A DNA stretch of 63,035 nt, counting the filler, from Methanobacteriota archaeon (GTDB lineage: Archaea > JACRDV01): NCBI GenBank assembly GCA_024860865.1. It is 4 parts of 4 records of this genome, joined end to end, with 100 filler letters (N's around TTAATTAATTAA, not from the genome) between each part and the next. Parts side by side here need not be neighbours in the genome. Positions count along the whole stretch, not along the records: positions 26,494 to 31,482 come from JACRDV010000065.1; 3 more parts are not named here. The stretch is one strand, 5' to 3'. Positions within the stretch are counted from its first letter, which is position 1, and each line of letters starts with the position of its first letter. Under the pieces are notes generated by a model that saw nothing but the letters and a program-made list of their open reading frames with translations, had not been told where the DNA came from and did not search any database. Positions 3,110 to 31,822 of the stretch are shown piece after piece. A program made the position numbers and the translations under genes.

Positions 3110-3173
3110 TTTTCTCTATGATGAGGTGAACCTGCGTCTGAAATATGATGATTGCTTACCTCTGATGAGGAAA
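3110..3173 (+). ncRNA. Archaeal box C/D sRNA (2'-O-methylation guide)
   Basis: C ATGATGA 3118-3124, D' CTGA 3138-3141, C' ATGATGA 3145-3151, D CTGA 3162-3165; guides of 13 and 10 nt; terminal stem TTTTCTC/GAGGAAA; intergenic. Confidence 0.9.
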
Positions 3174-9118: not shown

Positions 9119-10606
9119 TTAGCTAATAGCTGTTGTCTTTACTTTTTCCAACTGAAAAGCACTTATGGGGTAGATATTTGAATAATGATATTTTTTTGCC
9201 CACTCCTGGGTTAAGCTCTCCTCCAATTTTTGAAAGGGATCCAACCCCATCTGTTTCCAAGTAGCCAGCATAGTCATGATTATCCCATAGATAGAGGTTC
9301 CCTTCTCATTCCTAAAAGTTCCAATTATCTTCCTCTGAACAACGTGCTCCCTGAGTGCCCTCTCTGCCCTGTTGTTAGTTGGCTCAACTCTTGGTTTAAT
9401 TACAAAGGTGAACCAGTAGTTAGCTCCGTTGCGAATCTTCTTAATTAGTTTTCTCACTTCTTCACTCTTATAAGATTTCTTTACTAAGTATTCCAACCTT
9501 CTCTTTGCACTCTTAGCCAATCTTTTCCTCTTCTCAGGAGGAGGCTTATTTTTAAGTGATTCCTTGAGATCATTGTAAAGCTTGTGCAGCGCTTTAGAAA
9601 GTTGCTTTGCTTCCTCAACATACTCTGCTAGGTAATCTGCTTCCCTCAGCAAGTGGGCCCAATCTCTCTGGATGTTTCGGGTGAATTTTGGATAAGATCT
9701 CCATCCGTCGCAAACTATAACCCCTTTGAAATCATTTCCCAAAATCTCCTCCAAAACTTTTCTGCCCCTGCTGTTTCTTATTGCGACTAATGTTTCAGAG
9801 TTTGTCACGAAACCCCAGAGCCAGTACTTCCTGCCATCAACCTTTCCACCAGTCTCATCGTTGTAAACTACTTCTGACTTTCGTATGCGTTGAACAACTT
9901 CATTGTAACTTGGCTTTAGCCAGTCGCTCACCCTTCTTGTTATATCGAATATAGTTGAGGGCGTGATGGAAAGACCATAAAACCACTTTAGCACATCCCT
10001 AATCTTGCAGTGAGGCAATCTTGCCTCGTACTTCAAAAGAGTAACATAAGCCTGCAAATTCTTGCCAAACCTTCCTTCAGGCGGGCAATCTGGATGCCTA
10101 GCAACAACATGTTTATTGCAGTTTGGGCAAATCCCGTGCCATTCCTGAAAATCTATCACCATAGGCATGGGCTTAGGGATTTCCTCCACTATGTTGTGCT
10201 TAACAGCTATTGGGTTTCCTAGCTTAGCTCCACAGCAAGGGGAAACATTCCACTCAGGCTCTTTTACAACATCAGGTTTTGGGATAGGTCTAGTGCTGCC
10301 AGGATGTCCTTTAGGCCTTCCCGGGAACCTTTTTCCATTTTTTGGACTTCCACCATTGCATTTTTTAGGATACTTTCGCTGGGAGGAAGGCACGTTTGAA
10401 TTTTCGTGAAGAGAAAGCCTGCGCTTCAGTTCTTTTATCTCAATTTTAAGTGCAACATTTTCCTCTTTCAGTGCGGCATTTTCCTCCTTCAGCGCTAGGT
10501 TCTCCTTTCTTAACAAGAGGTTCTCATTGGCTAGCTGGTCAAGCTTTTTTTCCAAATTTTTCAAAAATTCCAGAGAGTGAATTTTCAGCTCGGCTTTATT
10601 TTCCAT
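9119..10606 (-). CDS. tnpC: IS66-family transposase
   Basis: Leucine zipper, NSNVPSS, Zn finger, DETG, CDGW, WAHLLR, TNNRAERALR. Confidence 0.95.
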   Translation of the reverse strand: MENKAELKIHSLEFLKNLEKKLDQLANENLLLRKENLALKEENAALKEENVALKIEIKELKRRLSLHENSNVPSSQRKYPKKCNGGSPKNGKRFPGRPKGHPGSTRPIPKPDVVKEPEWNVSPCCGAKLGNPIAVKHNIVEEIPKPMPMVIDFQEWHGICPNCNKHVVARHPDCPPEGRFGKNLQAYVTLLKYEARLPHCKIRDVLKWFYGLSITPSTIFDITRRVSDWLKPSYNEVVQRIRKSEVVYNDETGGKVDGRKYWLWGFVTNSETLVAIRNSRGRKVLEEILGNDFKGVIVCDGWRSYPKFTRNIQRDWAHLLREADYLAEYVEEAKQLSKALHKLYNDLKESLKNKPPPEKRKRLAKSAKRRLEYLVKKSYKSEEVRKLIKKIRNGANYWFTFVIKPRVEPTNNRAERALREHVVQRKIIGTFRNEKGTSIYGIIMTMLATWKQMGLDPFQKLEESLTQEWAKKYHYSNIYPISAFQLEKVKTTAIS

Positions 10607-10618
10607 GCCTAAAAGAAT

Positions 10619-11957
10619 GACACTGTTCGGAATTACTGGGTTGTCTGACTTATAGCAGACGTACGTCAGCTCAATTACTATTTTTGAAATGGAATCTCTA
10701 ATTCTACTTTATGAAGACCTTTCAAATAGACCTTGGGCCAGGAGGCATTGAGGCATTTATTGCAGTACAGCCTGCAGAAATCAAATGCCCAAGGTGTGGC
10801 TCAACCCATGCAATAGTTCACGATTGTTACTTTCGAAAGGTTCGAGACGTAAATTTGGAGCAAAGCCAAACCATATGCCTCCTGGTGATTCTATATGAGT
10901 GTAAGGAATGTAAAAAAACTTTTGCTCCAAAAATAGATGGGATCGGACCTTACGCAAGGTACACAAATAGAGCAAAGAAATTGGCAAGAGATTCAGTTAT
11001 AAGGGACAACCTTTCAACCAGAAAAGCAGCTGAGAGATTTAAAGAAGACTTTAAATTAAAAACTTCAAACTCAACCATATATGAGTGGTCAAAGGAGAGC
11101 TACGATGAGAAAATCTTTCCATTCAGCTTTTCAGGAGTTCTATGCATAGATGAAGCGCACTCAAAAACAAATGGAAAAGAGGACAGGGTTTTAATTGCTG
11201 CAGATGGAGTTAAAGGAGATGCGATTTTATTTGAGCTGAAAGAAAATGCAAGAGAAGAGAGCATTGAAGAAGCGCTAAAAAAGCTGAAAGAAATGGGAAT
11301 TGAGCCATTTTTAATAGTCACTGATTTTCACTCAGCTTACCATGAAGCGATTGAAAATGTTTTTCCAAATGCTATCCACCAGCTCTGCCATTTCCATTTC
11401 ATGCAACTTATAAACAAGCACCTCTGGAAAGCGATAAAAAAATTCAGGGACAGGTTGAAGAAAGAAGATAGAAAAGAAATAAACAAGCATAGGTTCAAGA
11501 TCTTAAAAAACCAAGAAAATAGGGATAGTGAAGAAGAAAAAATTGTAGGAGATTTACTAAAAAAGCACAAAGGAACAATTCTAGAGAAAGGATTAGTGTT
11601 AAAAGAAAGAATTCAAGAAATTTTCAAAAGCAATAACAAAAAAGAAGCAGTGCAAAAAATAAAAGCAGTATTAAAGGAAAAGCATCCAAAGTCTCTTAGA
11701 AAAATAATCAAGCCAATAAAATATCATTGGAAAGAGCTAATTTCTTACATGGACTTTGAAAATGTTCCAAGGACAAACAATCCGGCTGAGATAGTGAAGA
11801 GAAAGTACAGGGCATTCGAAAGGGCAAGGTATGGATTCAAAAGCAAAGATGGAAAGCAAATGCTCATCAAAAATTTCCAACTTTCAATTTTGATACAAAA
11901 AACAAAAAAATGGTTAGAAGGTCTACCTACCTAAACCCAGTAATTCCGAACAGTCTC
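10619..11957 (+). mobile_element. ISL3-like insertion sequence nested in the IS66 element
   Basis: 24-bp IR GA(C/G)ACTGTTCGGAATTACTGGGTT; 8-bp duplication AAAAGAAT at 10611-10618 and 11958-11965. Confidence 0.95.
10711..11934 (+). CDS. ISL3-like DDE transposase
   Basis: CPRCG...CKEC Zn finger, CIDE, VTDFHSAY, CHFH, TNNPAE. Confidence 0.9.
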   Translation: MKTFQIDLGPGGIEAFIAVQPAEIKCPRCGSTHAIVHDCYFRKVRDVNLEQSQTICLLVILYECKECKKTFAPKIDGIGPYARYTNRAKKLARDSVIRDNLSTRKAAERFKEDFKLKTSNSTIYEWSKESYDEKIFPFSFSGVLCIDEAHSKTNGKEDRVLIAADGVKGDAILFELKENAREESIEEALKKLKEMGIEPFLIVTDFHSAYHEAIENVFPNAIHQLCHFHFMQLINKHLWKAIKKFRDRLKKEDRKEINKHRFKILKNQENRDSEEEKIVGDLLKKHKGTILEKGLVLKERIQEIFKSNNKKEAVQKIKAVLKEKHPKSLRKIIKPIKYHWKELISYMDFENVPRTNNPAEIVKRKYRAFERARYGFKSKDGKQMLIKNFQLSILIQKTKKWLEGLPT

Positions 11958-29954: not shown

Positions 29955-30189
29955 CAGTAACCCCTCATATTAATATTTTTAACTAAAGTTTAGGTGTTTA
30001 AACAAATAATAAAGTTAAGTTTATTTTGCCTTTTTTAGGGATTTGAAGCCATTTTATAGGATTTAAATTAGCGTAAGTTTATAGGAAATTATTTTTCAGA
30101 AATCTTAATAATTAAGAACTGAACAGCAGGTGTCCAAAATTTTATAGTGAGTAACGAAAATATTATTAAAAATGATCTAAGTGGGCCCA

Positions 30190-30367
30190 GGGCCCGTAAG
30201 CGGAATCTTCCGCCGGGATGCTCAGCTTGGTTAGAGCGTCCGAGGAAATAACTCCGGCGAAGCTCATAACCGGATGGTCAGTTGGATGAACTGAGCTCAG
30301 AGGCTTCTATTGGCTTGAGCAGACTCATCCTCCCTAAAAACCGGTTCAAATCCGGTCGGGCCCACCA
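30190..30367 (+). tRNA. tRNA-Ile2(CAT) with three introns: 30199-30219 (9/10), 30243-30261 (30/31), 30280-30339 (48/49); CCA encoded
   Basis: The spliced 78-nt product folds as a complete cloverleaf and every junction lies in a BHB. A GGGCCCG acceptor stem favours Ile2 over Met. Confidence 0.88.
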
Positions 30368-30485
30368 GTTTTGAATACACGTAAGCGAGCAACTTATCAT
30401 TTATGAAATCGTTAAATCTACGGCAAAAGATTTTAAACCTAATAAAAGGAATTATTTCTAGTGCTCCGGTCAGCCGGGCGCTGCT

Positions 30486-30651
30486 GCTCCAGGTTCGACA
30501 AGAATCGGCAAAGGTAGTCTAGCCCGGTCAAAACTCTCAGTTGCCGGTAGGATTTCGGCCTTAACAGGTTAGTTTTTCTAATCTATGGCCAATCGAGCCG
30601 GAGACACGGGTTCAAAGGAGAAATTCTCTGAAAATCCCGTCCGGAGCACCA
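30486..30651 (+). tRNA. tRNA-Glu(TTC) with four introns: 30491-30512 (5/6), 30531-30548 (20b/21), 30563-30592 (34/35), 30617-30634 (59/60); CCA encoded
   Basis: Spliced 78-nt product GCTCCGGTAGTCTAGCCCGGTCAAGGATTTCGGCCTTTCGAGCCGGAGACACGGGTTCAAATCCCGTCCGGAGCACCA; four BHB motifs. Confidence 0.92.
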
Positions 30652-30704
30652 CTATTTTTGAGAAATTACTTTAAATGAAAGCAAACTTATTGTTTTATAT
30701 CGTT

Positions 30705-30819
30705 GCGGGGGTGTTCCGAGCGGTCAAAGGAGCTGGAGGTTTGCACTCAGGTGTAGATCGGCGAAGCTTAGGACCCAGTGGGCGTAGGCCCTTCCAGGGT
30801 TCAAATCCCTGCCCCCGCA
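30705..30819 (+). tRNA. tRNA-Leu(TAG) with one intron, 30737-30765 (30/31)
   Basis: GCGGGGG/CCCCCGC acceptor, long variable arm, BHB with one A.G mismatch. Confidence 0.9.
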
Positions 30820-31482: not shown

Positions 31483-31582
31483 NNNNNNNNNNNNNNNNNN
31501 NNNNNNNNNNNNNNNNNNNNNNNNNNTTAATTAATTAANNNNNNNNNNNNNNNNNNNNNNNNNNNNNNNNNNNNNNNNNNNN
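31483..31582. other. Artificial contig linker
   Basis: N44-TTAATTAATTAA-N44. Confidence 0.99.
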
Positions 31583-31822
31583 AGAAAGAAAACCCAAAAT
31601 TTATTCACAAAAACAAGTTAGGTCATTTTGGGTTATTATTTTGTTTCTTGTGCTTTTAGGATTATTTTTTGTTTTTATTTCATTTTATTTGTAATTTAGA
31701 CTGATATTTTAAAAACCTTGACGATTCAACTAAATTAATTGTTAATTTGGCAACTAAATCAGAATCATTTCAAAAAACATTTTTAGGTGATGTAAACATA
31801 ACAGGAAATAGCTAATTCGATT

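Follow-up and report, generated by a model that had tools for sequence, protein, structure and literature searches.

In archaeal tRNA genes, BHB introns that are non-canonical or occur several to a gene are said to have been described by Marck and Grosjean in 2003 and by Sugahara in 2007 and 2008. In the accessible parts of three papers such introns are placed, among other sites, in the acceptor stem and the D-arm (PMC4090602, PMC4033280, PMC12397907). Where leaders are discussed in the accessible literature, it is for split and permuted tRNAs only (PMC4090602, PMC4033280, PMC3218864, PMC11291895, PMC3239211, PMC3728597, PMC12397907). In those tRNAs and in rRNA processing stems, pairing of the leader builds a BHB that is cut by EndA, as far as the accessible text of PMC4033280, PMC4090602 and PMC3218864 goes, and the 5' leader meets the 3' end in a helix.

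The window analysed here, a stretch of 63,035 nt joined from four parts of one genome, contains a tRNA-Glu(UUC) gene that resembles both groups. It shares with the archaeal BHB introns, as these appear in the accessible sources, a 4-bp helix between two 3-nt bulges, the presence of several introns per gene and positions outside 37/38; its 5/6 intron has the central helix, the bulges and both flanking helices of an hBHBh' motif, and the cloverleaf is restored. It differs from them in a leader copy of the acceptor strand and in a leader-built BHB within a colinear gene, neither of which is mentioned in the accessible parts of PMC4090602, PMC4033280 and PMC12397907. From the split and permuted tRNAs and the rRNA stems, as far as the accessible descriptions of them go, it differs in being a colinear, one-piece gene whose leader:3' helix is bulge-free and no cleavage site, and from which RNase P rather than EndA presumably takes off the leader. 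The preliminary description knew of no account of this arrangement, and we likewise found no description of a leader acceptor copy in the accessible archaeal tRNA literature, where a brief mention in print is possible.

The gene is read through five exons and four introns:

30486-30651 (+): tRNA-Glu(UUC) gene, interrupted by BHB introns at four sites (5/6, 20b/21, 34/35 and 59/60)
30486-30490 (+): exon 1, positions 1-5 (scored BHB scan; ARAGORN on the spliced RNA)
30491-30512 (+): intron 1, 22 nt, at 5/6, strict hBHBh' (scored BHB scan)
30513-30530 (+): exon 2, positions 6-20b (relaxed BHB scan; ARAGORN)
30531-30548 (+): intron 2, 18 nt, D-loop 20b/21, H2 CGGU/GCCG, outer helix of just 2 bp (relaxed scan)
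30549-30562 (+): exon 3, positions 21-34 (ARAGORN)
30563-30592 (+): intron 3, 30 nt, in the anticodon loop at 34/35; H2 GGCC/GGCC with relaxed flanks (placed by hand)
30593-30616 (+): exon 4, positions 35-59 (ARAGORN)
30617-30634 (+): intron 4, 18 nt, in the T-loop at 59/60, with a strict hBHBh' (scored BHB scan)
30635-30651 (+): exon 5, positions 60-76, CCA encoded (ARAGORN); the partner of the spare strand is 30641-30649
30652-30660 (+): T-rich trailer, a likely terminator, which differs among run variants

In silico splicing at 30490/30513, 30530/30549, 30562/30593 and 30616/30635 produced a tRNA-Glu(ttc) of 78 nt with a canonical cloverleaf, a 7-bp acceptor stem and its CCA encoded in the gene (ARAGORN), and the hand placement of intron 3 agrees with this cloverleaf and its ttc anticodon. 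The BHB scan was scored; an earlier loose version, which returned 1823 matches on one strand, was replaced. All five exons are colinear within 166 nt and the helix between leader and 3' end has no bulges, which rules out a split or permuted gene. Because of its four introns the gene is overlooked by standard tools: default ARAGORN reported 0 genes in the window, ARAGORN allowing introns recovered the tRNA-Leu gene alone and mis-typed it, and Rfam gave 0 matches at gathering and no tRNA match in the window even at E up to 1. A search of the window found no T-arm besides those of the Met, Glu and Leu genes. This whole tRNA cluster is interrupted (3/3 genes, 8 introns altogether), tRNA-Glu alone having four introns.

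The leader of tRNA-Glu takes part in three pairings:

30431-30437 (+): TTTTAAA, TATA-like box, 24 nt before 30461
30461-30469 (+): spare (surrogate) acceptor strand GTGCTCCGG, a copy of positions 1-7 preceded by GU
30473-30479 (+): leader strand GCCGGGC, which pairs with D-loop GCCCGGU (30522-30528) and competes with the 20b/21 BHB
30480-30485 (+): leader half of the 5/6 BHB, made of outer helix strand GCUGC and U-1, the first base of the central helix

The scored scan placed the central helix H2 of the 5/6 BHB at UGCU (30485-88) and GGCA (30507-10), with bulges CC/A (30489-91) and AA/G (30511-13), the stroke falling at the exon ends 30490 and 30513. The outer helix joins leader GCUGC (30480-84) to GUAGU (30514-18, tRNA positions 7-11) over 5 bp, and the inner helix GGUUC/GAAUC likewise has 5 bp. 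The central helix takes up positions 1-3 of the tRNA and the outer helix position 7, with 4-5 and 6 left to the bulges; since a splice at 5/6 puts the start of the central helix at -1, the leader is required by geometry. GCCGGGC/GCCCGGU is separated from the outer helix by a 3-nt CUA bulge. Beyond these, GTGCTCCGG is Watson-Crick complementary to 30641-30649 (positions 66-72, A73 and C74) at 9/9 bases, so that this leader pairs with the 3' acceptor strand and the D-arm alike. The preliminary description had read from the gene a BHB that takes T30485 and 30480-84 from the leader, its extension onto the D-loop, an exact complement of the 3' end at the leader start and a TTTTAAA box about 25 nt before it, and each element was recovered here at its stated coordinates.

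Within the 63-kb window GTGCTCCGG occurs at 30461-69, with its reverse complement at 30641-49, and nowhere else; these two matches compare with 0.08 expected for the 9-mer, and two were reached in 0/100 shuffles. The MFE fold of 30455-30655 contains both leader helices (-85 kcal/mol, z = -6.6), a stability equalled in 0/200 shuffles. By the usual spacing of archaeal promoters, with some 30 nt from the beginning of the box to the start site, TTTTAAA would put the start of the tRNA-Glu transcript near 30461. A promoter position profile built from 122 ordinary tRNAs held nearly no information, and therefore no start was inferred from it. An overlapping BHB-like fold at 30473-30528, with a 7-bp outer helix (30473-79/30522-28), central GCUG/UAGU, a 2-bp inner helix and bulges CU/G at -1/+1 and CU/A at 13/14, was judged unused: its cuts fall at the mature 5' end and inside the D-arm, and it would excise positions 1-13.

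The source organism appears to be an Aenigmarchaeote (DPANN). The topoisomerase I of the window is 70-75% identical to Candidatus Aenigmatarchaeota proteins, and the nearest genomes by this protein are G133, G134, G135 and G141, at 74-75%. In 371 Aenigmarchaeota genomes searched by BLAST with the tRNA cluster there were short exon matches alone and no close relative; a pattern scan of genome contigs gave four matches, all unrelated, and a scan of metagenome contigs with exon 4 (23 nt) gave none. The locus itself, or a variant about 95-97% identical to it, is present in four public DNA runs. Within the Glu gene these variants differ in intron loops and the trailer, with C30479>T as the sole exception, which keeps the leader/D-loop pair as U-G; spare copy and acceptor strand are unaltered, at a divergence too small to test conservation. 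The best-matching run, X1, which is probably the sample from which the window came, differs from it at 30652, 30662 and 30864, all outside tRNA genes. In run X2, deletions summing to 26 nt affect the third, 60-nt intron of tRNA-Met (30280-30339), and the Met-Glu spacer (30372-30401) is swapped for 103 other letters, with tRNA-Glu promoter, leader and exons kept.

The neighbouring genes provide a second spare-strand case, in tRNA-Met 280 nt upstream of tRNA-Glu, and an in-window control:

30181-30188 (+): spare acceptor strand of tRNA-Met, GTGGGCCC, pairs with 30358-30365
30190-30367 (+): tRNA-Met(CAU) gene, three introns
30199-30219 (+): tRNA-Met intron at 9/10
30243-30261 (+): tRNA-Met intron at 30/31
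30280-30339 (+): tRNA-Met intron before the T-stem
30706-30813 (+): tRNA-Leu(UAG), one anticodon-stem intron and no 5' intron, the control

GTGGGCCC complements positions 67-72, A73 and C74 of tRNA-Met over 8 bp, and the 9/10 intron of this gene has the central helix CCCG/CGGG. The tRNA-Leu leader has no copy, its best run against the 3' strand being 2. Elsewhere in the window we noted weak matches to the archaeal C/D-box sRNAs sR1 and sR14 at 3114-3167 (+), at 23.5/22.4 bits and E 0.08-0.09, below gathering; an IS66-family transposase gene adjoining an ISL3/Mutator-like transposase gene at 9119-11934; and, at 31484-31583, about 670 nt downstream of the tRNA cluster, two N runs around a 13-nt island, which are joining filler.

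Relatives were surveyed for spare strands, scored as a Watson-Crick run of at least 7 nt between a leader and its own 3' acceptor strand; the measure was the best run formed by 60 nt of leader with positions 66-76, and the count covers tRNAs whose T-arm is intact and whose 7-nt 5' strand is contiguous. Pooled over distinct genes of the window and its relatives, a copy (run 7-10) is present in 16/19 genes with an intron at 5/6 to 9/10, these 19 amounting to four independent tRNA identities as orthologues are not independent, versus 0/123 genes without a 5'-proximal intron, whose maximum run is 6. The pooled set was de-duplicated and its sorting corrected by hand: L105 was assigned to the genes with a 5'-proximal intron, L007 and the window tRNA-Leu were taken out of them, and one spurious match was dropped. 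On an 800-kb contig of one of the nearest genomes (G134 C1), 37 tRNAs were counted, of which 35 have the D-arm directly after the acceptor strand and show leader:3' runs of 2-5; the other two, a tRNA-Asn and a tRNA-Phe with an intron at 8/9 or 9/10, show runs of 7 and 9, respectively, and were both missed by ARAGORN. Two split-T-loop candidates in the same genome proved spurious. Two further contigs, G148 C1 (549 kb, 38 tRNAs) and G141 C1 (118 kb, 8 candidates, one spurious), gave 0/46 tRNAs with a copy, with no 5'-proximal intron and no run above 6, and no copy was found at five Aenigmarchaeota tRNA-Glu genes without a 5' intron (G135, G136, G138, G327 and G233).

An orthologue survey of the 118 genomes in the taxonomic order of G134 extended the comparison. 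tRNA-Asn(GUU) has an 8/9 intron in seven genomes and the 7-nt copy is kept in 7/7, with 2-6 nt of unrelated sequence between copy and real strand; among tRNA-Asn genes without the intron a run of at least 7 occurs in 0/18 distinct genes, four of which have the identical acceptor sequence. For tRNA-Phe(GAA) the copy is present in 8/11 genomes with the intron and a readable leader (runs 7-10), and in 0/14 distinct genes without the intron. In the leader of L140 (G110:C20) two tandem copies occur, the outer one of 10 nt pairing through position 75, and that of L144 (G045) has an additional 8-nt complement to the anticodon arm. The exceptions, 3/19, are tRNA-Phe genes of G074, G076 and G071 (L125, L126 and L145), which have a 9/10 mini-intron but lack the acceptor copy; here it is the 3' side of the D-arm to which the leader is complementary, over 7, 7 and 9 nt, respectively. 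Leader:D-arm runs among the 123 ordinary genes reach 6 in five and 7 in one.

A PF01974 (EndA) gene lies about 1 kb from the intron-bearing, spare-strand tRNA-Phe in 3/3 genomes searched:

G134:C1:649574-650990: EndA/tRNA-Phe neighbourhood
G135:C4:31828-33342: EndA/tRNA-Phe neighbourhood
G137:C13:6051-7387: EndA/tRNA-Phe neighbourhood

Each of these relatives has one PF01974 gene, and RNase P RNA was found in relatives.

A BHB at 5/6 to 9/10 has to draw on positions 1-7 and on the 5' half of the D-stem, and the 3' partners of both, in the acceptor stem and in the D-stem, are left orphaned. In the reading that we favour, with a probability of roughly 0.6, the leader of about 25 nt is a working part of the tRNA-Glu splicing substrate and the spare strand drives a two-state strand swap. 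The leader would provide stand-in partners for the orphaned 3' strands, and the splice-competent fold would win. With the intron present, the spare strand would hold the 3' strand and leave the real 5' strand free for the BHB, and RNase P, lacking a native acceptor stem, would have no early cut site. EndA and ligase would excise the intron; because intron removal takes away the competitor of the real 5' strand, this strand, now contiguous, could displace the spare one. RNase P would cut off the leader in the irreversible step, and only afterwards would the D-loop exon be freed and the 20b/21 BHB form. We infer that the copy is transcribed, as well as this order of events and the strand displacement. 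Since the 5/6 splice signal includes leader bases, splicing must come before the leader is removed, in support of the earlier proposal that it precedes RNase P.

The precursors were folded with ViennaRNA at 37 °C, and the probability of the central BHB helix was read out in place of the strict-BHB energy because the model prefers pairing the bulges of mini-introns:

tRNA-Met: 0.97 with the copy, 0.00 with the copy deleted
tRNA-Asn: 0.99 with the copy, 0.075 with the copy deleted
tRNA-Phe: 0.37 with the copy, 0.001 with the copy deleted
tRNA-Glu: 0.05 with the copy, 0.05 with the copy deleted

Upon deletion of the copy the probability of the native acceptor stem rose from 0.00 to 0.92-0.99 in Met, Asn and Phe, and a switch of the 5' strand from acceptor stem to BHB is thereby predicted for these three. 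The strict BHB of Met costs 2.3 kcal/mol with the leader versus 11.3 kcal/mol without it. In Asn a shuffle control kept the effect (P(H2) 0.94), and enforcing the full strict BHB gave a small gain (9.4 vs 11.2-12.5 kcal/mol). For Glu the strict BHB costs 2.3 kcal/mol with the full leader or with a leader starting at 30470, 2.5 kcal/mol from 30480 and 4.6 kcal/mol from 30485, so that the model predicts a BHB held by the other leader helices and no effect of the copy. The idea that the leader serves as an RNA chaperone by holding the 3' acceptor strand during splicing therefore survives in part: the copy recurs, is conserved and is limited to 5'-proximal introns, but the Glu BHB is unchanged by it (ΔΔG 2.3 kcal/mol both ways). 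Competition between the leader/D-loop pairing and the 20b/21 BHB, suggested in the same place, is borne out by a cost of the latter of 16.5 kcal/mol with the leader vs 8.8 kcal/mol without. In the spliced leader-tRNA-Glu the leader-bound fold is predicted to be 12.1 kcal/mol more stable than the cloverleaf, and 6.4 kcal/mol more stable without the copy; the copy thus favours the leader-bound fold further and would hinder release of the leader in Glu. The case for the proposed mechanism is weaker for tRNA-Glu than for its neighbours.

These models bear on an alternative in which the copy gives no help to any BHB and the 9-bp end helix, including A73 and C74, only protects the 3' end and delays RNase P and the 3' enzymes. 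The equal BHB equilibrium of Glu with and without the copy agrees with this, as does the extension of the helix by 2 bp past the acceptor stem into the discriminator and CCA, and structured leaders gate RNase P in designed constructs, according to the accessible part of PMC8925977. However, formation of the BHB helix in Met, Asn and Phe is predicted to hinge on the copy, and pure end protection would not be limited to 5'-proximal introns, whereas 0/123 other genes have a copy. As an account of spare strands at large we consider it unlikely; at tRNA-Glu itself, the spare strand most likely does just sequester or protect the 3' end and block early RNase P.

The preliminary description had proposed looking for covariation in relatives and for confinement to tRNAs with 5'-proximal introns, and had taken similar duplications at intronless tRNAs as a sign of integration scars. 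The confinement holds in the census, and such duplications were absent from all 123 and 46 genes without a 5'-proximal intron. An att scar is in fact ruled out by these controls, together with copies that lie 1-16 nt from the real strand and have nothing inserted. The Asn and Phe copies follow the 3' strand: among orthologues the copy is 100% identical in Asn (15 pairs) and 96% in Phe (21 pairs), the 15 nt upstream of it are 49% and 40% identical, respectively, and the spacers from copy to strand vary in length and sequence. In the tRNA-Asn of G129 the real 5' strand has U4, which forms a wobble pair with G69, and the copy is still the perfect complement of the 3' strand; in the tRNA-Phe of G045 a G:C replaces the A:U of acceptor pair 6:67 and a matching G stands in the copy, the single covariation seen. 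Copies reach position 73, 74 or 75 whatever base stands there, with end pairs past the acceptor stem of G:C74 in the window, A:T74 in G134 (T74 is found in G137, too) and GAT:ATC in G110, which has T74 and C75.

The same comparisons speak to the possibility that the copy is a passive, functionless duplication left from the gain or move of an intron. It is true that copy and intron co-occur, that close relatives with the same acceptor sequence (G124, G126, G127 and G130) have neither, and that G110 has its copies in tandem. A scar would hardly, however, stay at 96-100% identity where flanks and spacers are down to 40-49%, track the 3' strand and not the real 5' strand as in G129, or covary as in G045. 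Nor would a duplicated strand be expected to extend onto positions 73-75, which lie outside it, and the Glu copy equals the spliced sequence, not the genomic one. We regard this explanation as improbable. By this comparison, spare strands make up a class of leader element under selection, found only at tRNAs whose first intron lies at 5/6 to 9/10. The spare strand can be taken as a real, non-chance, recurrent and apparently unpublished accessory of a known kind of intron, for which the proposed mechanism is plausible and has the comparison of relatives behind it.

Another conceivable parse takes the upstream copy for the true 5' exon, or for an alternative one, and assigns the downstream copy to a longer intron, as joining 30463-70 to 30516 onward yields the same sequence as joining 30486-90 to 30513 onward. 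No acceptable BHB supports such an exon, which has no outer helix, at most 1 bp of inner helix and no candidate with a score of at least 30, whereas a strict hBHBh' can be drawn for the downstream copy; in Met and Asn, moreover, the base that follows the upstream copy is wrong for position 7 or 8. This makes it very improbable. The ambiguity is nonetheless a source of mis-annotation: the mature tRNA-Glu sequence is identical whether the copy or the real strand is taken as the 5' end, and a gene finder that takes the copy will report a long acceptor/D-stem intron without a BHB. A DNA-level element, such as a promoter, a factor binding site or a recombination site, would suit the location at the expected transcription start and is the least credible of the explanations, because the sequence differs per tRNA and always equals the own acceptor strand, which fits RNA pairing and not a shared protein site.

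Attenuators and riboswitch expression platforms work as switches between mutually exclusive helices. The strand swap proposed here resembles these, as well as the designed RNase P leader switches in the accessible part of PMC8925977, in that two copies of a strand compete for one partner and the helix formed decides which enzyme acts. It differs from them, on the same limited basis for the designs, in being natural and lying in a tRNA precursor, and in that the trigger would be removal of an intron, not a ligand or a ribosome. What this locus adds is a 5/6 intron with three separate leader pairings, together with a controlled census in Aenigmarchaeota.

The strand swap would answer how a BHB can form from bases that are wanted by a far more stable acceptor stem, and how trimming of the leader is avoided before an intron that depends on the leader has left; the spare strand would be a clean and testable RNA switch. 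Intron and copy are gained or lost together among close relatives, and models of intron gain are therefore constrained. Stand-in leader strands, copied from the 5' side of the acceptor stem or of the D-stem, may form a general and undescribed class, for which we see the chances as evenly balanced: a splice-triggered switch that would license EndA, order splicing before RNase P and RNase P before the later introns, and let introns colonise the first ten tRNA positions in several archaeal phyla.
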